Assembly: GCA_000146465.1 (NCBI GenBank)
Contig: CP001949.1
DNA: 64,000 nucleotides
Direction: 5' to 3' (one strand)
The notes under the pieces were generated by a model. The model made no database searches, was not told the origin of the DNA, and was given only the letters and a program-made list of their open reading frames with translations. This document shows positions 19,975 to 32,122 of the stretch, in pieces; the first letter of the stretch is position 1, and every line of letters starts with the position of its first letter. Position numbers and translations under genes: made by a program.

Positions 19975-22770
19975 ATGTCGGACATAGAGGCCTTTGTGGC
20001 TTTTTACGAGCATCTGAAGTCTCAAGGAAAGGGAGATTCCGAGCTCCGGAGCGAGGAGCTGGAGAGGGCCATGAGGGAGATGCTGAGGAGAGCAAAGATA
20101 ACGGACTTTAAGGAGTATGCACGAAGTTACAAGTACAAGAGGAGGGAGCTGAGTGGTTTTCAGGAAGTACTGGTGTGGGGAAAGAGGAATTCCATATGGA
20201 ATGGAATGGGAGACATGTTTAGAAGCAGTATGGAGCTTCTCGGGCATTCTGGACAGGTTGATAGAATATGCTTTGACCAAGGAAATAGATTCTTTATGTC
20301 TGGAGGCTCTGATGGAATGATCAAGCTCTGGGACATTTACTCAGGGCTTTTGGTATACAGCTTCATAGGCCACCGAAACCTTGTGAGCGACCTTTGTGTT
20401 AGTAGTGATGGGAAAGTCCTTGTTTCGTGTGATTCCCACGGATTACTGAGCATCTGGTCCTTGGAGAGGTTTGAAATGCTCCTCCAGCTTGAACTGGAAT
20501 GCGAGATTGTCTTTACCGAATTTTTTGACACAGACGACCTATCTACCTATAATCTGATTGTTGTTTTGTCGAAGGGTGTTATCAAGACATACAGGTTTGA
20601 TGAGAGAAGGATAGTGTCTGAGTCTGAAAACCTTTGTCTTCTTGACGAGTCCATCAAGGGCCTGTGCTTTACAGATGGGGGAAGGTTTCTTCTGTGTAGT
20701 GGATGGTGGCCATTTCTTGTTGTCTTCGACACCCAGAACTCCGATGGATGCATAGTTCTTGAGACAAATGGAATGCCGGTGAATACCATATGCGGATCGA
20801 AGAAGGGTCTTAAGATAGCAGCAGCGTGCGACTCTCAAATATTCCAATGGACATTCTTTGCAGAGGGAAATCCTGGAATGGGAAACTTCAAAAGGAGAAC
20901 AAAGGACACGTCGTTAGAGGGACACTGGAAAAGATCTATCACCAAGATTGACATTGGGGAGAACGAGTCGATCGAGAGGATATGCTATCTCCGGGACAAT
21001 TTTCTCGTTTGCATATGCACTGATTTGAAGATAAGGATATTTGCGGGATCTGAGCTTAGATGCATAATAGACATACCGGAAATGGGGATTGCATATCCAC
21101 ATCCTCTGGAGAACATATTTGCCCTCTGCGGTAGTAGCCTTCGAATATATAGCATGGACAAGCTGATCTACGAGGAGATGCTGAGCTTTGCAGCCAATGA
21201 TGGCCAGTTTTCGAATGATGGAGAGTTCTTTGTGTTTGGAGACGAAAGAGGAGTGGTAAGGGTACTTTCGATGAGTTTCCTACCAAAGCCACCGAAGGAG
21301 CAGTTTTTTGAATCCGACCTTGACCACCTTAACTCTACTGAGTGGAATGGAGTTGTTGAGTGCAGGAGAGAATCCACTTATGAGTCGGATAGAAAGAGGA
21401 ACGAAGATTGGTTCCAAGTGGAATATGCCATTACAAAGAAGTCCAACGACTGTGTAAAGGTTGAGGATCTGGGATCAAAGCACTTTGTGAAAGACTTTGT
21501 AGGTCTTGAAGCATTCCGAAAAAAGTACATGAACATTCCCTTGCCTGGGGAGACACAGTCTGTGGAGCAGACAATGATATCTGAGTATAGCAGCAGCATC
21601 CTAGAGGGAGACACATCCAGTGGGTTTTACGAGGAATCTACAGACATGACAGGAGATGAAGAAATATTGTTTGAAGACAAAGGGGCACCTGTAAGAAGAT
21701 CCCTTGTTATCAGTGATGAGTCCTCGGAGATGGTGCCTGTTTTGAGAAGAAACACCCGGGTCTCGGAGGATGTTGAGAACGATTTAAGTCCAACAGGAAT
21801 TGTAAGAAGGTTAAGGAGATTCAATAGAGACCAGGCTGTGGAGGATGAAGAAAACGGAATCCGCATTCTGTCGCTAGAGGGAGGGGACGGTATGGACAGG
21901 AGGGGTGCTGAGCATTGTGCAGGACCTCGTAGTAGTATTAACGACAGCGAAAGAAGTGAACTAGCAGAAAACAGTGATGACCGATATGTGATTGGATTGT
22001 CTGGAGGGATAGGGCATGGAGAGCAGGAGCTAAGGCAGTATGTTCAATCGTGGCTGTCGTCTCCAAGTATGGTACCTCAGCCGGGAGATGTTGTTTACCT
22101 AAACTCCGAAGGCCTGAGAGAATTTCAAATGTTTGATGGGAGAAAGAAGTTTAAGGGGCAAGAAATATGCTCTGGATACTACGAAGTGAGAAGTCTTGAG
22201 GCAGTCAGGTACAGCCCACCATTTCTTAAGGTGGGGCTGGGCCTTAGAGACGAGAGCTTTTCGATAAGATACTACAGGTATCCTGGATCATCTCCTGTGC
22301 TCTTGTTAAGAGAACAGATGAATGCTGGGGCAGGGGATTTTATAAGTTTTGTGTCAAATGGGATAATATCTCGAGGAAGGGTGTCTGGAGTTCGAGGAAT
22401 CCATCTTGTAGTTGATTCTGGAGGGACTTCTGTCCTGGTTGAGAGGCTGGACATGTTAATTCCAAGGGCATTATTTCCTGGGGATATGAAGACCGAGATG
22501 TTAAAAGTACTCAGGCAAAGGAGAATGCACAGAGGACTTTACGTAACCCTGAGAAGAGAGTCAAATCCGTCTTACTACGAGAATGCAACTTCTACTGTCA
22601 ACCTAGGGATTATTGAAGAAAAGATCCTCCACGACTTATATCGGACAATAGGTGGACTGGAGTTTGATCTTGACATGGCAGTTAGTAACTCATTATATTT
22701 GGGGCCAGTTCTTCATGAGCATTGTCAGCAGGCTGTGGAAGGGGTCCGAACGATTATAAGAAGGATTTGA
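19975..22770 (+). CDS. Large WD40-repeat protein (931 aa) with an N-terminal WD propeller; function unknown
   Basis: WD repeats (GHSGQVDRICFDQ...SGGSDGMIKLWDI...) followed by a long non-repetitive C-terminal region. Confidence 0.5.
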   Translation: MSDIEAFVAFYEHLKSQGKGDSELRSEELERAMREMLRRAKITDFKEYARSYKYKRRELSGFQEVLVWGKRNSIWNGMGDMFRSSMELLGHSGQVDRICFDQGNRFFMSGGSDGMIKLWDIYSGLLVYSFIGHRNLVSDLCVSSDGKVLVSCDSHGLLSIWSLERFEMLLQLELECEIVFTEFFDTDDLSTYNLIVVLSKGVIKTYRFDERRIVSESENLCLLDESIKGLCFTDGGRFLLCSGWWPFLVVFDTQNSDGCIVLETNGMPVNTICGSKKGLKIAAACDSQIFQWTFFAEGNPGMGNFKRRTKDTSLEGHWKRSITKIDIGENESIERICYLRDNFLVCICTDLKIRIFAGSELRCIIDIPEMGIAYPHPLENIFALCGSSLRIYSMDKLIYEEMLSFAANDGQFSNDGEFFVFGDERGVVRVLSMSFLPKPPKEQFFESDLDHLNSTEWNGVVECRRESTYESDRKRNEDWFQVEYAITKKSNDCVKVEDLGSKHFVKDFVGLEAFRKKYMNIPLPGETQSVEQTMISEYSSSILEGDTSSGFYEESTDMTGDEEILFEDKGAPVRRSLVISDESSEMVPVLRRNTRVSEDVENDLSPTGIVRRLRRFNRDQAVEDEENGIRILSLEGGDGMDRRGAEHCAGPRSSINDSERSELAENSDDRYVIGLSGGIGHGEQELRQYVQSWLSSPSMVPQPGDVVYLNSEGLREFQMFDGRKKFKGQEICSGYYEVRSLEAVRYSPPFLKVGLGLRDESFSIRYYRYPGSSPVLLLREQMNAGAGDFISFVSNGIISRGRVSGVRGIHLVVDSGGTSVLVERLDMLIPRALFPGDMKTEMLKVLRQRRMHRGLYVTLRRESNPSYYENATSTVNLGIIEEKILHDLYRTIGGLEFDLDMAVSNSLYLGPVLHEHCQQAVEGVRTIIRRI

Positions 22771-22808
22771 GGGTTGCGGACATGTAATCAAGGGCTGGGG
22801 TTACCCTG

Positions 22809-23525
22809 ATGTACTACGACGTGAATATTAGTCTGGATTATCCAAAGCAAGATATCGAGGAGCTGGAGAAAAGTGAATACGAAGGGTTTTGTGTGAATAA
22901 GACTATGAGGCCCAAGGACCTCGAAAGACTTTCCCATGGATCTCTTGAGTTTCCTGGGGCAAAGCGTTACTACAACCGTGCGGAGATTGTATTTGGAGAG
23001 GGAGAGCAGATTGGATACGACTTTAGAAAAGCAATGAGATATGATCTGTTTGTTGTGAAGCTGAGCGGGACAGAGGGAATGGATAAGATAATAAAACATC
23101 AGCCAGATATGATTACATTTGACTATGGTGGAAAAGTCCTTCCATTTAAGCCCGGACTTGTCAAGACGGCAATCAGGGAAGGCATATTCTTTGAGATACC
23201 GATGAGAGAGGGCTTGAGAGGAGGGTCTTTAACCATCATGTGGATCCGGAATGTACGGAGACTGCTGTTTATTACAAATGGGAAGAACATTGTAGTTAGC
23301 AGTGGGGCCCAATGCTCCATGGAGATTAAGAAAGTCAGAGATGTTGTTAAGATGCTTGAGATGTTTGGACTTGGGGAGAAAAGAGCACTGGAAGTGATGC
23401 TCAACTCGGAGAGGCTTTTAAAGAGGTGTGCAATGAAAAGGCATTGCTACAGAGACTCGATTGTGCACAGTGTGGATGAAGGGGCCCTAAAAAGGGACTT
23501 TGTACTGTCTCTGTACAAAAATTGA
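22809..23525 (+). CDS. RNase P/MRP protein subunit Rpp30 (Rpp1)-like, paralog A
   Basis: PHP/TIM-barrel Rpp30 pattern: YDVNIS..., ITFDY, FFEIPM, NIVVSSGAQCSMEIKKVRDVVKMLEMFGL. Confidence 0.65.
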   Translation: MYYDVNISLDYPKQDIEELEKSEYEGFCVNKTMRPKDLERLSHGSLEFPGAKRYYNRAEIVFGEGEQIGYDFRKAMRYDLFVVKLSGTEGMDKIIKHQPDMITFDYGGKVLPFKPGLVKTAIREGIFFEIPMREGLRGGSLTIMWIRNVRRLLFITNGKNIVVSSGAQCSMEIKKVRDVVKMLEMFGLGEKRALEVMLNSERLLKRCAMKRHCYRDSIVHSVDEGALKRDFVLSLYKN

Positions 23526-23589
23526 TTTTTTACAAAATAAAGTCTACGACTAATAAGACTTGTATTTTTGATTACCTTTCCAAGGCTCG

Positions 23590-24243
23590 ATGTTCTTTGA
23601 TGTAAATGTAAGTAACAGATGCCCAAGAGGGGATCTGGATGTTTTAAAGGAGCTTGGATGGGATGGAATCTGCATAAACACTGTTGTTGGCTTGGACAAC
23701 CTGGAAGGATGGAGCAGTCCCCTTCTTGATGTGTGGAAGGACGAGAAGGCCTATGAGAGGATAGAGGTAAGATACAAGGATAATGAGAAGTGGAGTGAAG
23801 TTAGAAAGATGGTGAATCCTGATGTGCTTTCGGTGAGAATAGAAGGGGTTGAAGACTTTAAGAAAGCTCTCGAGGTTTCTCCAGACGTGATTACATTTGA
23901 TTATTCCAGGAGCTTCTGTCTCGGAAAGGACGAAGTTTTTGAAGCTGTGAAGAGAAATATATTTCTTGAGATTCCATTGGTGTGTGGGATGTATGGCCAG
24001 AGAAACAAAGTTGTATGGATGAGAAATGCCAGAAAACTTGTGGAGATCACGGGGGGAGTGAATGTTGTGGTTGGGAGCGGGGCGTCATGTTGTACAGAGA
24101 TGAGAAGTTCCCATGACATTATAAAGATATTGGGAGGACTTGGAACGAGTGGAGACTGTGGAAGGAAGATACTGCAGAACTCTGGGAGGCTGATCAGGTC
24201 CTGCAGAATAAGAAAAGGATGTGTTATGAAGGAAGAGATATGA
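23590..24243 (+). CDS. RNase P/MRP protein subunit Rpp30-like, paralog B (divergent tandem copy)
   Basis: Same collinear motifs (FDVNVS, ITFDY, FLEIPL, NVVVGSGASCCTEMRSSHDIIKILGGLG), about 30% identical to paralog A. Confidence 0.6.
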   Translation: MFFDVNVSNRCPRGDLDVLKELGWDGICINTVVGLDNLEGWSSPLLDVWKDEKAYERIEVRYKDNEKWSEVRKMVNPDVLSVRIEGVEDFKKALEVSPDVITFDYSRSFCLGKDEVFEAVKRNIFLEIPLVCGMYGQRNKVVWMRNARKLVEITGGVNVVVGSGASCCTEMRSSHDIIKILGGLGTSGDCGRKILQNSGRLIRSCRIRKGCVMKEEI

Positions 24244-24327
24244 TTGGTTCCTTGAAGATGAGATTCTGAAACATCTCTAGTTCTGTGACTACTGAGATAA
24301 ATAGAATTCTGAATCCAAACCAAAGGC

Positions 24328-25674
24328 ATGGGAGCAAGAAAAAACAGGATGAGAGGACGAGGTAGAATTCAAGGGGCTGGGAGAAGTATTGTTATTGAGA
24401 GAAGTGAGGTTAAGAAGGAAGAGAAGGCGGAAGGGAAGTTCAATGTCGATTTCCAGGAGCTTAACGAAGAACTATCTGGCATCGAATTAAAAGAGGAGAA
24501 TTCAAAGTGCTCTGATGTTGATGAGATGGTGTGTGAGAGAGTCTGCAAAGACGACAAAGTTGAGGAAGTACCTGAGGTATCCGAGATTAATAGGGAAAAT
24601 ACAGTGGATGAAGAGGTGGAGGCTGAGAAGAAGGAAGAGAATATCGAAAACAGAAAGGAAGAAGGAGAAGATGCTGTAAAAGCATCGCAAGCCCTCTATC
24701 CAGCAACACCCAGTGTATTGACCACTGTTATACCTCAGACACCAATGAGGAGGGTACTTCATGAGGAAGGAAGCCATCTTTTTGTTAAGGAGGAAAGTAT
24801 GGCTCTTCCTGGGAAGGTGATTATCAATAGGTATCCGGGACATTTGTTTATTCATATAGACCAGGTCGAGAGGTTCATGACATCCAGGAAGGAGGTGGAG
24901 AGTGTATCTATTAAGATTGAATCGAAGGGGATCTTCTATGAGACAAAGAAATATCCAGTGCAGCCGGACATAGGAATCAACGAGATGCTGCAAGTCCCCA
25001 TCAACAAGGCCGAGAGCAATGGAACACCTCTGAGATTTATACTTCTCCTGTACCACAGGTCTGGAAATATAGTAAAGTCGTGTGAAACTGTGCTTGTGGT
25101 TGACGGAAGTAGAATCCGCTCAATACATAACAATCTTCTCGAAAGTAGATTGGCATGGGACAACTATGTGTCGAGGAATCTATTTAAAAGCATTCGAAGC
25201 TTTTTTACAAGTGGAGCACCTGATGCATGGAGCCTGAAGATTTACTTGTCGTTTGTGTCGGACGATGAGCTTAGGTTGATTCCTGCGCCTCTTCCTCAGG
25301 ACCTTAAGTCCCTCAGCAAGTGGCTGGTGGTGAAGAAGTTTTCTTATAACATATGGTTTAGAGGATTTGTGAATGTCCGGGGAGATGTTGAAAAGGCATG
25401 TACCAACCTATGGAAGAGAAGATATGTTCGATGCTATGGATACATGATCTTTATATTTAACGAGCATTCGAGAAGCCTTGTTGGGACAATAAACCTCGTG
25501 GATGCAAGCTTTGATCCAAGCACGAGTAACAAGGTATATTTAGAGAACTTTCTTCGGATTAATGTTGGGGAGAAGGTGGTTGAGTTGCATTTTGACACAA
25601 AGGACAAATATAATACATGTAGGAGCGCACTTACCATGATGCTTCCACGAACACTGTTTCACAAGAAGGGGTGA
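24328..25674 (+). CDS. Hypothetical protein (448 aa) with a basic/acidic low-complexity N-terminus
   Basis: ORF only. Confidence 0.4.
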   Translation: MGARKNRMRGRGRIQGAGRSIVIERSEVKKEEKAEGKFNVDFQELNEELSGIELKEENSKCSDVDEMVCERVCKDDKVEEVPEVSEINRENTVDEEVEAEKKEENIENRKEEGEDAVKASQALYPATPSVLTTVIPQTPMRRVLHEEGSHLFVKEESMALPGKVIINRYPGHLFIHIDQVERFMTSRKEVESVSIKIESKGIFYETKKYPVQPDIGINEMLQVPINKAESNGTPLRFILLLYHRSGNIVKSCETVLVVDGSRIRSIHNNLLESRLAWDNYVSRNLFKSIRSFFTSGAPDAWSLKIYLSFVSDDELRLIPAPLPQDLKSLSKWLVVKKFSYNIWFRGFVNVRGDVEKACTNLWKRRYVRCYGYMIFIFNEHSRSLVGTINLVDASFDPSTSNKVYLENFLRINVGEKVVELHFDTKDKYNTCRSALTMMLPRTLFHKKG

Positions 25675-25806
25675 TCTGGCAGACGATGTGTTTCCTGAAA
25701 CCTATCTTATTAAAGAATTGAATACGGCCTTTCTCTATGTTCTGATGGAGGGAAGTTTTCCCGCCAAGCCTAAGGATTTCAAGAAAATCCAGGATCCTGG
25801 GAGTTT

Positions 25807-26112
25807 ATGCGGCCTGTTTTGAACGAGACAACGAATGCTACCAAAAGACTGGAGACAAAGAGTAAGGAAGGGGAAAGTGACAAGGGAAGGGTGCTCCACT
25901 TCCTGAAGGGTGTCTACGCAACGACCAGGGACTATTCGTTGAAGTATGACCTGAAGAAATGTATGGAGATAATTGAAGGGAAAGAGAACCAAGAGGTCAT
26001 CGACCTTAAGAATGCGTTGTCTGAAGCTCTTATAGAGAACGAGACGCTGTTTGCAGAGAAATGCGAGCTTGCAGTTACTCTGGAATGTATGAAAGCAGAA
26101 AGAAAGGAGTGA
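25807..26112 (+). CDS. Small hypothetical protein (101 aa)
   Basis: ORF inside an otherwise ORF-poor 840-bp stretch. Confidence 0.3.
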   Translation: MRPVLNETTNATKRLETKSKEGESDKGRVLHFLKGVYATTRDYSLKYDLKKCMEIIEGKENQEVIDLKNALSEALIENETLFAEKCELAVTLECMKAERKE

Positions 26113-26196
26113 TCACTGGACTCTGATATACATTAAAGGACTTATTTACTATTTGGTATTGAGAGATGGATTTTTGGCGGGACACCCCTCGGCTGA

Positions 26197-26472
26197 ATGG
26201 AGTTGCGATATAGATTGTAAGTGGAAGCAACTAATTTTAGGGTTTTTGGCAGAAAGGGTGTTCTGATCGAAGACCGAGCTCTGAAGGAGTTTGTGAGCGG
26301 GCTTATCCGGGGCTTTGGGGGCCTTGATTTGCTGAGCAGAGTTAGTGTAAGATGTGATGGAGGAGTGATCAATATCTCGGCGGACAAAGAGGCTTCTAGC
26401 ATTGTGCATGGATCTCTATTTCTCTGCGGAGAGTATAAGTCTGTTGGATGTAGATTTGAGCGAATCGATTAA
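26197..26472 (+). CDS. Two-exon small protein (~84 aa): exon 1 26197..26216, intron 26217..26240, exon 2 26241..26472
   Basis: ATGGAGTTGCGATATAGATT|gtaagtggaagcaactaattttag|G GTT TTT GGC... The splice fuses ATG plus 6 codons to ORF 26221..26472, which the ORF finder could only open with GTG. A CCCC motif lies just upstream of the ATG. Confidence 0.5.
26217..26240 (+). other. Spliceosomal intron (24 nt) gtaagtggaagcaactaattttag close to the 5' end of the gene
   Basis: Near-identical to the intron at 4396..4419: GTAAGTGGA...CTAATTTTAG. Confidence 0.5.
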
Positions 26473-26514
26473 ATGGTTTATCAAGTGTCATTACTATAAA
26501 TTATTCCAAATGAT

Positions 26515-27804
26515 TTGTTTAAAAAACAGATGCATAGAAAAACAATGACAGAGAGCTTGGATGGATACAGGGAGATAACCGAGATCCGGAGAGACAGGAG
26601 GATTGTGATAAGCTCTGCCGTAGATGTAGTGACTGGAGAAAAGGTTATTCTTGAGGAGGCAGATCTTTCTGGGATTTCTTCGTACTACCAGCCGTTATTG
26701 ATGGGTTTTTTACTAGAGCATGAACTCAACAACTCGCCTTATGTGATGAAGGTGATGAGGGTTTTTGAGAGCTCTAACCGAATTTATGTGGTACAGAGGC
26801 ATATGTCTCTTGGGCCTGTGGATACTACGATTGGAAACCAAATCTTTGTGAGCGATGACTTTGTGTTCTATGTATTTATGCAAGTGGTGTATGCCATGAA
26901 GCTGAACGGGGAAGAGGGATGGTTTTGGGACCGAATGTCGCCAAGATACATATGGATTGATGAGGATGGGAAAGTCCGAATATGCTGGGCAGATGTTGTA
27001 TTGGGGAATATGAAGGCGATGGTTAAGCAGTTGGATAAGTGGAACGGAAGAATGAAGAGTGAAGAGAAGACAACAGGGGGAGATAAGGTTAATTCTGGGT
27101 GCGAGGGGTCGGTGTCCTTTGGAAATCTAAGAAGGATTTTTGTGTCGCTAGCTCTGGGTGTATCGGAAGTGTCGAAAGTCATGTATTCTTGGAACGGCAG
27201 GATTGGGAGATCTGGATTCTTGGGACATATCCAGGGTCTTTCGCCGGATCTAGACGGGCTTGCATCGCTTCTGTTTGAGGATGGAGTCGGGATAAAAGAT
27301 CTTGAAGAGTATACACGGAGGATGATCCAAGAAAAGAGAATAGCCAGTAATCCTCGGGAGATATTCAAATCCCTGGGAACTGTTTTGGAAGAGATGAAAA
27401 GAGACGAAAACAAGACGTTGGAAGAAACAAGGGCATGGAATGGAAAGTCCCCGAGAACAGAAGAACCGGAAAGCGGAAGTGGGTCTGAGGAGAGCGGGAG
27501 AAATATGAGCGAGAGTGGGAGTAGAGGAGATGATGAAAGAGTTGGATCTTTTGGGACAAGAGAGTACAGAAAAGGGAGATTCTATGTATGCGATGCCATT
27601 CCCTTAGGAGAAAGAGAAAAAGGCCTAGGGATGAATGATCAGATGAAGAGAATGGGCCGAATTGTGAATGTACAAAATCGGCAGATAAGTCTTCTTACAG
27701 GTGTAATGAGGAAATCAGGACTCCTAGACAAGGAGACAGATGCAGAACTTGGAGAATTAGAAGATCTAGTGAATTTTCTGTTGTTTGGAGTGGAGAGGCA
27801 GTAG
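26515..27804 (+). CDS. Protein kinase-like fold lacking canonical catalytic motifs (putative pseudokinase) with an acidic/Ser-rich tail
   Basis: Kinase-like spacing (ITEIRRDRRIVISSAVD...KVILEE...YVMKVMRVFES...YVVQRHM...WFWDRMSPRYIWIDEDGKVRICWADV). I see no GxGxxG, no HRD and no DFG. Confidence 0.4.
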   Translation: MFKKQMHRKTMTESLDGYREITEIRRDRRIVISSAVDVVTGEKVILEEADLSGISSYYQPLLMGFLLEHELNNSPYVMKVMRVFESSNRIYVVQRHMSLGPVDTTIGNQIFVSDDFVFYVFMQVVYAMKLNGEEGWFWDRMSPRYIWIDEDGKVRICWADVVLGNMKAMVKQLDKWNGRMKSEEKTTGGDKVNSGCEGSVSFGNLRRIFVSLALGVSEVSKVMYSWNGRIGRSGFLGHIQGLSPDLDGLASLLFEDGVGIKDLEEYTRRMIQEKRIASNPREIFKSLGTVLEEMKRDENKTLEETRAWNGKSPRTEEPESGSGSEESGRNMSESGSRGDDERVGSFGTREYRKGRFYVCDAIPLGEREKGLGMNDQMKRMGRIVNVQNRQISLLTGVMRKSGLLDKETDAELGELEDLVNFLLFGVERQ

Positions 27805-27867
27805 AAACATATTATAGATAAAATCTGTTTAATCTATTTCTTCTTTGAACGATCTCCAAGCCCTCGA

Positions 27868-28758
27868 ATGGAGGAAATCGTTTACTTATGCGATTTGAGC
27901 TTTTACTCGTCGTCTGTGGCAGGAGATTCGCTAATTGCCTCGGACAAGATGGGGGGAGTACACATAATAGCTCCGGAAATAAGCACAGTGAATATAGATC
28001 ATTTCAAGAAGGATGTTAACTTCTATCCTGTTGATGATTTATGCTTCACCACCACAGACATGTTCAAGGGAATACGGGTGTGGGATAGATGCCGGGGAGA
28101 CATAGTGTATTCATATAAAGAAGATAGCATCAAGATGCATACATACAGCAGGACGGGATGTTTAGCAGCTGTTGGAGAAGGATGTGTGAAACTTTATGAT
28201 CTCCGTGTCAGGTACAATATTGATGCAGTGCCTCTAAAGATGTGCAAGAAAGCAGAATGGGGAAATGACAGGATTTATTGCATCAACGACGAGTGTGTGG
28301 TTGAATATGATACTCGGAACATGAGTAGCATGGTATGCGGAGAGAAGAATGAGGCCTATCTGAAGAAAAAGAATATTGAGGGAATTCTCGACCTTATCAG
28401 TATTAGTAAGGGGGAGTTTTGTACGGTGAAAAGAGATGGGGTCCCATATCTCATGAGATTGTCTGGGGTAGATGTGATGGAAGGGACAAGAAGAGCATCG
28501 ATTGGATGGAAGATGATAAAGGTTAAGGATACGTCTGATGATTTTGTGATTGGAATGGTAAGCGAAAACACTGTAGGATTCTACGGGTATAAGGACACGT
28601 GGACTCATGAATTTGATGGGATTAGTCATGTGGACTGGATGTGCTTTTCCAAAAGGAAAATCTATATGTTTGCAGATAAAAAGATTTATCTCATAGAGAG
28701 AGAGTACGAAGGGTTGAAGGAGCTTATGAAGGAAGGGCCTGGGTCCTTGGAAGAATGA
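27868..28758 (+). CDS. Hypothetical protein (296 aa), possibly a beta-propeller
   Basis: ORF; weak WD-like segments. Confidence 0.35.
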   Translation: MEEIVYLCDLSFYSSSVAGDSLIASDKMGGVHIIAPEISTVNIDHFKKDVNFYPVDDLCFTTTDMFKGIRVWDRCRGDIVYSYKEDSIKMHTYSRTGCLAAVGEGCVKLYDLRVRYNIDAVPLKMCKKAEWGNDRIYCINDECVVEYDTRNMSSMVCGEKNEAYLKKKNIEGILDLISISKGEFCTVKRDGVPYLMRLSGVDVMEGTRRASIGWKMIKVKDTSDDFVIGMVSENTVGFYGYKDTWTHEFDGISHVDWMCFSKRKIYMFADKKIYLIEREYEGLKELMKEGPGSLEE

Positions 28759-28820
28759 GCAAGGAAGCCCCTGGAGATTGTAGTGAATAAAAATGGATTA
28801 GGAGATGGGCTGTAAACAAA

Positions 28821-30986
28821 ATGAAATTCAAGAGGACAATACAGAAAACATTTGGATCGTCGAAGATAAAGAGTATACAGGTGCATCCTACCAAGCCGAT
28901 AGGGATAATGGGGCTGTTTTCTGGGGATATCCAGGTTTGGGACATCGACAAAATGGGAATGATAAACAGCATCCATGTGTGTAATGAACCGATAAGAACC
29001 TGTGCAATCTTGAGTAGGATGGACTGGGTACTTGTGGGAAGTGACAACGGAAAGGTTAGCATATACGAACTGGGAAAGTACAGGAAGATCAAGATGTTTC
29101 ATGGGCATGACGACTTCATCAGGAAGATCGAGGTCCACCCACAGGAACCGATGTTTTTGACTGCCTCCGATGATTCGACACTGAAGAGCTGGACATATGA
29201 AGAGGAGATTGTTCAGAAGATGGTATACACAGGACACAAGCACTTTGTAATGGATGTTTGTTTTTACCCGAATGACTGCAGTAAGTTCGTATCGTGCTCT
29301 CTGGACTCCACAATCAAGGTATGGCACATAGGACAGCCGCATTGTGTGAAAACGTTCAAGGGACACGCGTCTGGAGTAAACAGTATATGCTTTCTGAGTG
29401 GAGATTATCTGGTTTCTGGGGCAGACGACCTAACATTGAAGGTTTGGGACTTCCAAACAACACAGTGCATAACAACCCTCGCAGGACATACAAACAATGT
29501 CAACAAGGTGTATCCGTTTAGTAGCTTCTCTCTTTTTGCTTCATGTGGAGAGGATGGAAGCATGCGGCTATGGAACAGCAAGACATTCAAGCAGGAGGAT
29601 CTGATTATGCTGCAAGGGGGAAGAGTATGGGATGTGAAGGAGAAGGACGGAAGGATAATTGTTGGGTGTGATGAAGAGCTTGTCTTTATCAATGCTTGGC
29701 AGGGATCATCTCTTGTTCGGATGAGTAGGAACAGAATATTCTACTCTGCATCTGGGTCTATGTTTGGTACCAGGAGTGACAACATAGGTGTGGTCAAAGA
29801 GTTGCATAACATTGGATTCTACCCCGACGAGTTAGAGGTGTCCCCGAGTGGAAAGACAATAGCAGTTGGGAACGAGGGAGAGTTTAAGATCTTTTCATCT
29901 CTGGGATTTCGAAACAAGTTTGGCGGAGAGGGAAGAGATTTCCACTTCATAGAGGATGATGAATTTGTTGTGAGAAACGGAGAGGTTGTGAACTTCTACA
30001 AGAAGGCCGAAGTGATCCGAAGTATTAGCATCAAGGGGATCAGCAAAGTGTTTTTTCTAAGTCCTAGGTTGATAGGATGCAATGTCTGCGATCAGACGAG
30101 AATTTACCTATCTACTGGAGAGTTCGTGTCATCTGTTAGTCATGCGTCCGACCATCTTGCCATGATCGGAGACTTTCTGATTGCATGTGGAGCATTTATA
30201 AGCATCTACAGAGTGGACCATGAAGTGATCAACGGGTTTATTGAACAGGAGATTGAGATTCCAGAGGAAGGGATAAAGGAAGCATTAATACATCTTGGGA
30301 CTGAGTACTATTCGGTAGCATCCTGGTGTGCAAAAGAAGATGTTTTCTACTTTGTATCAAATGGTAAGGGATACTATCTCATCCTGGGAGACAAGCCATA
30401 TGTATATCATTTTTCATCTATTGACGGCACAATTGCCGGAGTTGAGAACGGAGTTCTGTTTTATCTCCGCGACAAATCAATTGAGTGCAAAAGGATAGAT
30501 GGGGAGTTTCTTGAGTTCCAAAGATCTGTAATACTTGGGAAAGAATACAAGGTGACGGAGGGGATCCGCAGTAAGGCGATTGCATTTTTCGAGTCTCTGG
30601 AAATGCACGAGAATGCTCTAGATCTTTGCATAGACGACAACCAGAGATTTGAGATTCTTCTCAAGCTGGACAGGTATGATGAGGCATTTTCAAAAGCAAA
30701 CAGTATAGTCAAGTATGACAAGCTTGGAAGATACTTTCTCAGGGCCGGAGAGCTTCCGAAGGCATCTGAATGCTTTCTTAAGTCGAGGAACTGGGTAAGC
30801 TTGCTCCTTTCAGACATTCTATCTTCGAAGAAAAATCTTTCTCTTGCAGCATCCGAGTGTAAAAAAGAGGGAAGGCTGAACCATGCATTCTTCGCATACC
30901 TCAAGAGCGGACAGTATATTGAGTGTGCCAAACTGCTGGAAAAAACTCCTTTCTCGACCTTGTTTGCTAAGAACTATCTTGATTAA
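28821..30986 (+). CDS. SEC27: Coatomer beta' subunit (COPB2/Sec27)
   Basis: The N-terminal double WD propeller is collinear with Sec27 (IQVHPTKPIGIMGLFSGDIQVWD...GSDNGKVSIYE...HDDFIRKIEVHPQEPMFLTASDDSTLKSW...), followed by an alpha-solenoid. Confidence 0.85.
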   Translation: MKFKRTIQKTFGSSKIKSIQVHPTKPIGIMGLFSGDIQVWDIDKMGMINSIHVCNEPIRTCAILSRMDWVLVGSDNGKVSIYELGKYRKIKMFHGHDDFIRKIEVHPQEPMFLTASDDSTLKSWTYEEEIVQKMVYTGHKHFVMDVCFYPNDCSKFVSCSLDSTIKVWHIGQPHCVKTFKGHASGVNSICFLSGDYLVSGADDLTLKVWDFQTTQCITTLAGHTNNVNKVYPFSSFSLFASCGEDGSMRLWNSKTFKQEDLIMLQGGRVWDVKEKDGRIIVGCDEELVFINAWQGSSLVRMSRNRIFYSASGSMFGTRSDNIGVVKELHNIGFYPDELEVSPSGKTIAVGNEGEFKIFSSLGFRNKFGGEGRDFHFIEDDEFVVRNGEVVNFYKKAEVIRSISIKGISKVFFLSPRLIGCNVCDQTRIYLSTGEFVSSVSHASDHLAMIGDFLIACGAFISIYRVDHEVINGFIEQEIEIPEEGIKEALIHLGTEYYSVASWCAKEDVFYFVSNGKGYYLILGDKPYVYHFSSIDGTIAGVENGVLFYLRDKSIECKRIDGEFLEFQRSVILGKEYKVTEGIRSKAIAFFESLEMHENALDLCIDDNQRFEILLKLDRYDEAFSKANSIVKYDKLGRYFLRAGELPKASECFLKSRNWVSLLLSDILSSKKNLSLAASECKKEGRLNHAFFAYLKSGQYIECAKLLEKTPFSTLFAKNYLD

Positions 30987-31054
30987 ATAAGTCGGTGGCT
31001 ATGTTCTTCTTTCCAGGACCCGGGATACACAAATTCTGATAGGAAGGATCCCTG

Positions 31055-32122
31055 ATGGAGAATCTAGAAAAATGGTATCCGATAGAGGTGACCACACACA
31101 ACTTGCATTTCCATGAGGAAGCATCCATATTCACAATGCATGGGAATGAAGAGTTTATAGCCACGGGAGGAGGGGATAAGGATATAAGACTGTGGAGGGT
31201 GGAAAAAAGTGCATCTAAGAACAAGGATTTTTGTTATACCACGGCAGCCAACTCCTCTATAAAGATAAGATATCACACAGTACTTTCTGGACATCACAGG
31301 AGCGTTAATTGTGTCAGATTTCAAGGGGATCTATTAGCATCTTGTTCCGATGGTGGAGAAGTCATCTTGTGGAGCGGAGAAAAGCCGCATGTAGTCCGAA
31401 GGATTGATGGAGATGATGCATATGAGCTTGTCTGGGGAAATGGGCATCTCTTTGTTGGGTTTTCCAGCGGAAACATATTGGTGTACCAGGTGACTCTGAA
31501 CAACGAATCTCTTAGAGGGGACGAAAACCATTCCAACTCGAGAGCTTCAAAGGACGAGGATGAGAAAAAGAAAGATTGGAGCCAGGAGATATCTACCAAG
31601 TTGGTGCAGAAGGTACAATGCCATGGAGATATAATACAGGGATTGGCATTTAACCATCGCTTTGGAGTCCTAACATCTTTAAGCAAAGACCGCACGGGAA
31701 GGACGTTTGTGTTTACCGACAAGCTTGTTGCAATAGAGAAAATGGAATATGTTGATGGAGAGAGGCTCTTTACAGCGGGAAGAGGCTTCTTTAGAAGGTT
31801 TTCATACTCTCCAGATGGGAAACTTTTATATCTTGCATGCTGCAAATCCAACACTGTTGCTGTACTTCACTATCCATTCCGAATGGAGCACATGTATGGA
31901 ACAATGGGACCCTTTGACTCGGAACCTTTGAGAATAATGTGTGATGAAAATAAGGTGTTTATTGCAACCAAGAAGAACTTGTATGTGTTTGCGGATCAGA
32001 AGCTGGAGTTCTGTGTAGAAAACATTTCCTTTATGACCATAACAGATGGATGGGTGTTTGATGGAATTTGCTTTCTGTGTTCCTTGGACGGATTTCTGTC
32101 ATCGTTGAGCATGAAAAGATGA
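31055..32122 (+). CDS. WD40 protein of the CAF-1 p60 (Cac2)/HIRA family
   Basis: N-terminus TGGGDKDIRLWRV...HHRSVNCVRFQGDLLASCSDGGEVILW, typical of chromatin assembly factor B-type propellers. Confidence 0.5.
   Translation: MENLEKWYPIEVTTHNLHFHEEASIFTMHGNEEFIATGGGDKDIRLWRVEKSASKNKDFCYTTAANSSIKIRYHTVLSGHHRSVNCVRFQGDLLASCSDGGEVILWSGEKPHVVRRIDGDDAYELVWGNGHLFVGFSSGNILVYQVTLNNESLRGDENHSNSRASKDEDEKKKDWSQEISTKLVQKVQCHGDIIQGLAFNHRFGVLTSLSKDRTGRTFVFTDKLVAIEKMEYVDGERLFTAGRGFFRRFSYSPDGKLLYLACCKSNTVAVLHYPFRMEHMYGTMGPFDSEPLRIMCDENKVFIATKKNLYVFADQKLEFCVENISFMTITDGWVFDGICFLCSLDGFLSSLSMKR

Follow-up and report, generated by a model that had tools for sequence, protein, structure and literature searches.

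A small intron-split gene of Encephalitozoon intestinalis and its probable kinship with the Rpp14/Pop8-type subunits of RNase P/MRP

The window analysed here is a 64-kb stretch of chromosome 8 of the microsporidian Encephalitozoon intestinalis, whose positions are used throughout. It carries a small gene with its ATG on a 20-nt first exon, separated by a 24-nt intron from the remainder of an 83-codon frame. We put at about 0.7 the probability that this is a real gene, expressed by splicing, whose 83-residue product is a minimal member of the Pop5/Rpp14/Pop8 group, most likely an Rpp14/Pop8-type subunit of RNase P/MRP. The gene model is already public and an orthologue already bears an RNase P name, so neither is new, and current understanding is changed neither by the gene model nor by the RNase P candidate. 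The locus instead serves as a worked example of how gene calling based on open reading frames (ORFs) loses microsporidian genes whose ATG lies on a tiny 5' exon.

Gene structure and conservation of the intron

Joining position 26216 to 26241 yields a coding sequence of 252 nt and a product of 83 residues (MELRYRLVFGRKG...CRFERID; in full, MELRYRLVFGRKGVLIEDRALKEFVSGLIRGFGGLDLLSRVSVRCDGGVINISADKEASSIVHGSLFLCGEYKSVGCRFERID). An earlier note, made from the letters of this DNA, had proposed the gene, and its placement of the ATG (26197), the intron (26217..26240) and the upstream CCCC is borne out in every coordinate (Table 1), as is its observation that the ORF list opens the exon-2 frame solely by the GTG at 26221, there being no in-frame ATG in that ORF. 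Two details need adjusting: the product was given as about 84 residues instead of 83, and the first exon as the ATG plus six codons, where it holds the ATG, five codons and two bases of a split Leu codon. The 24-nt length of the intron places the ATG and exon 2 in one frame in E. intestinalis; since the 5' splice site itself creates TTG-TAA, however, unspliced RNA encodes MELRYRL alone and translation ends after these seven residues.

Table 1. Coordinates of the small gene, its signals and its neighbours in the window.
Feature	Position	Strand	Details
Rpp30 paralogue (RNase P p30, Rpp1/Rpp30)	22809-23525	+	238 aa; PF01876 in public loci
Rpp30 paralogue	23590-24243	+	217 aa; PF01876, E 3.4e-24
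DUF5101 (PF17031) gene	25807-26112	+	immediate upstream neighbour of the small gene
Out-of-frame upstream ORF	26166-26213	+	15 codons
CCCC start-proximal motif	26186..26189	+	read directly; 8-11 nt 5' of the ATG
Exon 1, ATGGAGTTGCGATATAGATT	26197..26216	+	20 nt; ATG 26197-26199 plus 17 nt, encoding M E L R Y R and supplying TT of the split Leu codon
Spliceosomal intron, GTAAGTGGAAGCAACTAATTTTAG	26217..26240	+	24 nt, phase 2, GTAAGT...ACTAAT...TAG; 5' splice site GTAAGT 26217-26222; branch-site motif ACTAAT 26230-26235, presumed branch A 26234, five bases before AG; 3' splice site TAG, AG at 26239-26240
In-frame TAA formed by the 5' splice site	26218..26220	+	TT|GTAAGT read as TTG TAA; unspliced translation MELRYRL*
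Exon 2	26241..26472	+	last base of the split Leu codon to stop TAA 26470-26472; residues 7-83
Conserved block between the small gene and the kinase-like gene, TATAAATTATTCCAAATGATTTGTTTAAAAAACAGATG	26496-26532	+	nearly invariant in three species

The same split is found in six lineages, namely E. intestinalis (first exon 20 nt, intron 24 nt), E. romaleae (20 and 23 nt), E. hellem (14 and 23 nt) and three lineages from Logan/JGI assemblies, L005 (14 and 22 nt), L008 (20 and 23 nt) and L009 (23 and 28 nt, in a sequence of 21% G+C). In all six the intron interrupts the same Leu codon in phase 2, after its second base, begins with GTAAGT and ends with AG, and the frame is restored solely by splicing; where the intron measures 22, 23 or 28 nt, ATG and exon 2 share a frame only once it is removed. 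Every intron-bearing orthologue has TTG-TAA or CTG-TAA at the 5' splice site. As for the branch motif, E. romaleae and E. hellem keep it as (A/G)CTAAT; weaker versions stand in L005 and L008 (both GTTAAT) and in L009 (ACATAAT). In an alignment of E. intestinalis, E. romaleae and two E. hellem loci, 19 of the 24 intron positions are invariant and there is a single 1-nt indel, over a span in which coding third positions drift.

The coding sequence on either side of the intron behaves as that of a functional protein would. Orthologues with signatures of purifying selection are present in at least eight lineages; of the 71 differences that separate E. intestinalis from E. romaleae, 38 are at third codon positions, and two E. 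hellem strains are separated by seven synonymous changes and no non-synonymous one, one of the seven being CTG versus TTG in the split codon itself. The RYR-L residues spanning exon 1 and the junction are kept in E. romaleae and E. hellem and align gap-free to the KY(R/K)L N-termini of homologues from two more distant microsporidia that have no intron and in which the junction is contiguous, one on a JGI metagenome contig (...AKYRMALHKRNA...) and the other ENBRE01_2686 of Enteropsectra breve (...SKYTLSLIKKTA...). Conservation of the spliced frame in related genomes was thus looked for and found, and the proposal of the earlier note, a coding gene with a tiny 5' exon followed by an intron, is upheld by the split conserved in six lineages; the intron is a canonical mini-intron of the Encephalitozoon type.

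Mini-introns of the E. cuniculi type have reportedly been treated by Katinka (2001), Lee et al. (2010) and Grisdale et al. (2013). E. cuniculi introns are of the GT-AG class, 22-76 nt and typically about 25 nt long, with strict 5' and branch motifs, and usually lie just after the start codon (PMC3629993, PMC6349667); 37 of them are reported to be validated by RNA sequencing. The present intron, starting 20 nt after the A of the ATG and falling within the reported length range of 22-76 nt (PMC3629993), resembles them in its GT-AG ends, its GTAAGT, a strict branch motif near the 3' AG, a length of 22-28 nt across lineages and its extreme 5' position. It differs in that the gene carrying it does not encode a ribosomal protein and in that the intron is missing from the Enteropsectra breve orthologue and from one metagenomic relative. 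None of the protein searches brought up an E. cuniculi orthologue, and literature text searches for EROM_081240 and ECU08_1240 found no mention of either. An identification of L005 as E. cuniculi was considered and rejected, the neighbouring proteins of L005 occurring in Logan assemblies alone.

Taken by itself the intron motif is not significant and is not evidence alone. A regular expression for GTAAGT...[AT]CTAA[CT]...AG finds a single site in the 64 kb, counting both strands, which is this intron, and mononucleotide shuffles of the window predict about 1.0. It could accordingly be argued that there is no gene here, merely a chance ORF beside a chance intron-like motif in an intergenic spacer, an argument to which the shortness of the ORF and its lack of a Pfam match also lend themselves. 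Two things set the intron apart from a chance match: it sits directly between an ATG and an ORF that lacks one, and it is conserved, with frame restoration, in six lineages. Orthologues under purifying selection in at least eight lineages, a frame restored for four different intron lengths, the existence of intronless homologues and a confident structural model all speak against a chance ORF; judged by these comparisons of sequence the idea is already refuted, and we assign it a negligible probability.

The CCCC upstream of the ATG is likely to be a transcription or initiation signal of the kind typical for this genome. Of the 48 large ORFs of the window, 26 have CCC in the 20 nt 5' of the first ATG, as against 15% of random 20-mers, and the orthologous loci also carry CCC 5' of their ATG; it can be used as a start-site signal when annotating this genome. 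An out-of-frame ATG 31 nt 5' of the real start opens a further short ORF that ends within exon 1 (Table 1). This ORF opens upstream of the CCCC and hence probably lies outside the transcript.

Fold and family relationships of the product

The AlphaFold2 model of the 83-residue protein is a beta-alpha-beta-beta-alpha-beta fold predicted with confidence (pLDDT, the predicted score in the local distance difference test, 87.8; predicted template modelling score, pTM, 0.76), and its core superimposes on the solved Rpp14, Pop5 and Pop8 subunits. The top seven Foldseek matches in the PDB are all Pop5 chains, and two structure-search methods rank the Pop5/Rpp14/Pop8 subunits of RNase P/MRP first. The earlier note had called for structure prediction on the spliced product and had seen in its tail a vague likeness to Roadblock/LC7. 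The prediction does return a confident fold, but one of the Pop5/Rpp14/Pop8 type. Roadblock/LC7 proteins are likewise small alpha/beta proteins of similar size; nevertheless, the modelled topology differs from theirs, none is among the structural matches listed in either search, and no Pfam family, Roadblock/LC7 included, is matched by the window protein, so that this assignment is rejected.

Sequence comparisons define the family to which the protein belongs and point in the same direction as its fold. Starting from the three Encephalitozoon sequences, HMMER recovers 26 proteins at E <= 0.001 (25 without one repeat protein), 12 of them at E <= 1e-10; most have 80-100 residues and come from microsporidian contigs, one being that of Enteropsectra breve. 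The family follows the pattern KY+L-x-F-x-KK...L..FV...L..FGG..LLS...V....C......VH.AL..CG.Y....C.F. A word-indexed protein search with the family profile added two further Logan sequences and no named members, and hidden Markov model searches of PDB sequences with 3- and 28-sequence profiles gave insignificant matches to CopZ and eL22 alone. PF01900 (Rpp14/Pop5), reached by 4 of 28 members (best E 0.0014), is the sole Pfam family with matches from more than a single member.

The relationship is clearest in profile-profile comparisons with hhalign. For these the human RPP14, human POP5 and yeast Pop8 query sequences were identical to the PDB chains, the vertebrate Rpp14 alignment was built from database matches, and the Pop5 alignment was small, with four sequences. 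The family aligns with vertebrate Rpp14 from end to end over 87 columns at a probability of 90.6% (E 1.3e-6, score 42.3), with the Pop5 alignment at 4.5% (E 0.0089, score 21.9) and with yeast Pop8 at 0.1% (E 0.64, score 9.5), while Rpp14 against Pop5, the positive control, reaches 95.1% (E 3e-8, score 52.6). Against 60 column-shuffled Rpp14 alignments the family attains at most 3.3% (mean score 12.1, standard deviation 2.3, maximum 20.1), which places the Rpp14 score about 13 standard deviations above the shuffles. By eye, the family and Rpp14 have in common the C-terminal pattern L-x-G-x-Y-K-x-x-x-C-x-F.

One way to read these results is that gene and intron are real and the protein is a degenerate, truncated Pop5 orthologue, in an RNase P with an archaeal-like Pop5 homodimer. 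The Pop5 chains at the head of the Foldseek list are compatible with this, as is the UniRef name of the E. hellem orthologue, 'Ribonuclease P protein component 2', which is also the name on PDB entries for archaeal Pop5. Yet the Pop5 score of 21.9 barely exceeds the shuffle maximum of 20.1, where Rpp14 reaches 90.6%. In most members, moreover, the family alignment ends 2-6 residues past the C-x-F strand: the family stops a few residues after strand 4 and, when set beside Pop5 (archaeal RNP2 in 2CZV, 3WZ0 and 2AV5; yeast 6AGB chain E; human 6AHR chain E), is without the C-terminal helices that follow and without V-[SG]-G-T-I, a motif shared by all four sequences of the Pop5 alignment and lacking any counterpart in that of the family. 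A microsporidian Pop5 was, in addition, found by sequence profiles in a 2006 inventory (PMC1636426); it is probably a different and more typical gene. We therefore consider a degenerate Pop5 unlikely.

A second possibility is that gene and intron are again real but the protein is a lineage-specific small RRM-like (RNA-recognition-motif-like) or ferredoxin-like protein unrelated to RNase P/MRP, serving for instance as an adaptor or in other RNA binding, its resemblance explained by a common fold. Such an origin seems to us distinctly improbable: two independent structure-search methods place the RNase P family first, no Pfam family other than PF01900 is matched by more than one member, and the match to the Rpp14 profile is full-length in addition to standing far above the shuffles.

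Several observations weigh against the kinship with RNase P/MRP subunits that we favour, or against efficient expression of the gene. On its own the window protein has no Pfam match at E <= 1. For no family member was the PF01900 gathering score shown to be reached. The E-value for Rpp14 comes from a single targeted comparison and would be borderline if corrected for about 25,000 families; no similarity to yeast Pop8 is detected by hhalign. Finally, short E. cuniculi introns are spliced at less than 20% on average (PMC6349667), so that the productive mRNA may be a minority. The known subunits also differ from the protein in several respects. Human Rpp14 (6AHR chain H, of the Rpp14 branch of PF01900) has 124 residues to the 83 found here, with an N-terminal extension and a C-terminal tail that are missing in E. 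intestinalis, whose protein falls below Pfam significance by itself; yeast Pop8 (6AGB chain H) shares 6% identity in the structural alignment, besides its hhalign probability of 0.1%. Nonetheless, the preference of the sequence for Rpp14, combined with the missing hallmarks of Pop5, makes an Rpp14/Pop8-type role the best reading.

The name borne by the E. hellem orthologue, which independently points to RNase P, may have come from the structural matching of the telomere-to-telomere project, in which functions were inferred from structural matches to the PDB (PMC10158259). Searches of the paper on that project and of its supplements, and of the 3DFI paper, found no description of a microsporidian Pop5 or Rpp14.

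A model for expression and assembly

In the enzymes solved from yeast (6AGB) and human (6AHR), Pop5 forms a pair with Pop8 or with Rpp14, and each of the two partners binds one copy of Rpp1/Rpp30. The window encodes two tandem Rpp30 paralogues (Table 1), 32% identical to each other and about 2 kb 5' of the small gene, and the pair is kept in E. romaleae and E. hellem. These paralogues may have divided between them, by subfunctionalisation, the two places that Rpp30 takes in the eukaryotic RNase P tetramer, and would then be the presumptive partners of the 83-residue protein. The 2006 inventory lists Pop1, Pop4, Pop5, Rpp1, Rpr2 and Rmp1 for Microsporidia, with neither Rpp14 nor Pop8, and its authors, Rosenblad et al., found Rpp14 in Metazoa alone (PMC1636426).

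Expression of an Rpp14/Pop8-type subunit from this locus can be pictured as follows. Transcription would begin close to the CCCC, within the spacer of 84 nt that follows the DUF5101 gene, giving a pre-mRNA with the ATG on its 20-nt first exon. The reduced microsporidian spliceosome would then excise the 24-nt GT-AG intron, with U1 pairing with GUAAGU, U2 with ACUAAU and the branch A five bases before the AG, and joining TT to G would create the Leu codon and open the 83-codon frame. Since the 5' splice site supplies the TAA, protein output would depend wholly on splicing, and by analogy with the poorly spliced introns of E. cuniculi the intron may keep that output low. The finished protein would take Pop5 as its partner and bind one copy of Rpp30, in a tetramer that grips the RNase P/MRP RNA like a clamp at its catalytic domain.

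Going further, the family may represent an Rpp14/Pop8-type subunit unlisted in the 2006 inventory that, together with the Rpp30 paralogues, forms a fully asymmetric Pop5-Rpp30a / Rpp14-like-Rpp30b tetramer whose output is gated by a poorly spliced mini-intron. We advance this fuller scheme tentatively, at somewhat less than even odds. If true, it would describe, in minimal form, the protein clamp that eukaryotes place on the catalytic RNA. The small gene supplies a candidate partner of Pop5 for an RNase P/MRP that ranks among the most reduced in eukaryotes, with the duplicated Rpp30 genes hinting at an asymmetric assembly.

Annotation status and genomic context

The spliced product is 100% identical to the deposited KAL7349042.1, 'hypothetical protein P7C66_08s3g13240', of E. 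intestinalis ATCC 50507 (PMC12697097); it is 69% identical to EROM_081240 of E. romaleae and 65% identical to the E. hellem proteins, the orthologue of that species being deposited as EHEL_081220. The public gene spans measure 276, 275 and 269 nt for 83, 83 and 81 residues, and none translates directly, which means that each was annotated with a 24- or 23-nt intron. In the ATCC 50506 reference, by contrast, the gene appears to be absent, the upstream neighbour Eint_081220 (ADM12054.1) and the downstream neighbour Eint_081230 (ADM12055.1) having consecutive accessions. The neighbours are likewise consecutive in two of three newer isolates (KAL7345129/KAL7345130 and KAL7347090/KAL7347091), from which the gene would on the same grounds be missing. 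The description of the gene in the earlier note as hidden is thus apt for ORF finders and for the ATCC 50506 reference but not for the public record as a whole, given the three deposited proteins. E. intestinalis annotations are inconsistent between records, and the reference annotations need harmonising.

The expectation that ORF-based annotation would miss such a gene is confirmed both by this reference, which runs from Eint_081220 to Eint_081230, and by the orthologues in metagenome and SRA assemblies. Their gene calls are shortened to 69 residues in L005 (1501-1710), 56 in L008 (601-771) and 74 in L009 (601-825), starting at GTG, TTG or internal codons because a first exon of 14-23 nt and its intron had no place in the gene models. 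The N-terminus of the family will be under-represented in protein databases compiled from calls of this kind.

The adjacency of the DUF5101 gene and the small gene recurs in Encephalitozoon, in L005, L006 and L008 and in Enteropsectra breve, and is thus conserved over a large evolutionary distance. Outside E. intestinalis the DUF5101 neighbours lie at 1085-1390 in L005, 1196-1501 in L006, 525-971 in L007 and 149-463 in L008. In L006 the stop of one gene call shares a base with the start of the next, and the 106-aa call concerned probably starts too far 5'. Scanning the whole window for Rfam families and tRNAs gave no match, and a non-coding RNA at the locus was accordingly rejected.

Downstream, a block in the spacer that separates the small gene from the kinase-like gene (Table 1) is more conserved than the adjoining coding sequence. 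The start of that downstream gene differs between public records, being given as 424 aa from the ATG at 26530 or as 419 aa from MTESL. Over 20001-32000 the window shows a sustained positive GC skew (0.18-0.36 per 2-kb bin) that coincides with a long run of plus-strand genes, and the skew drops or reverses where genes change strand.
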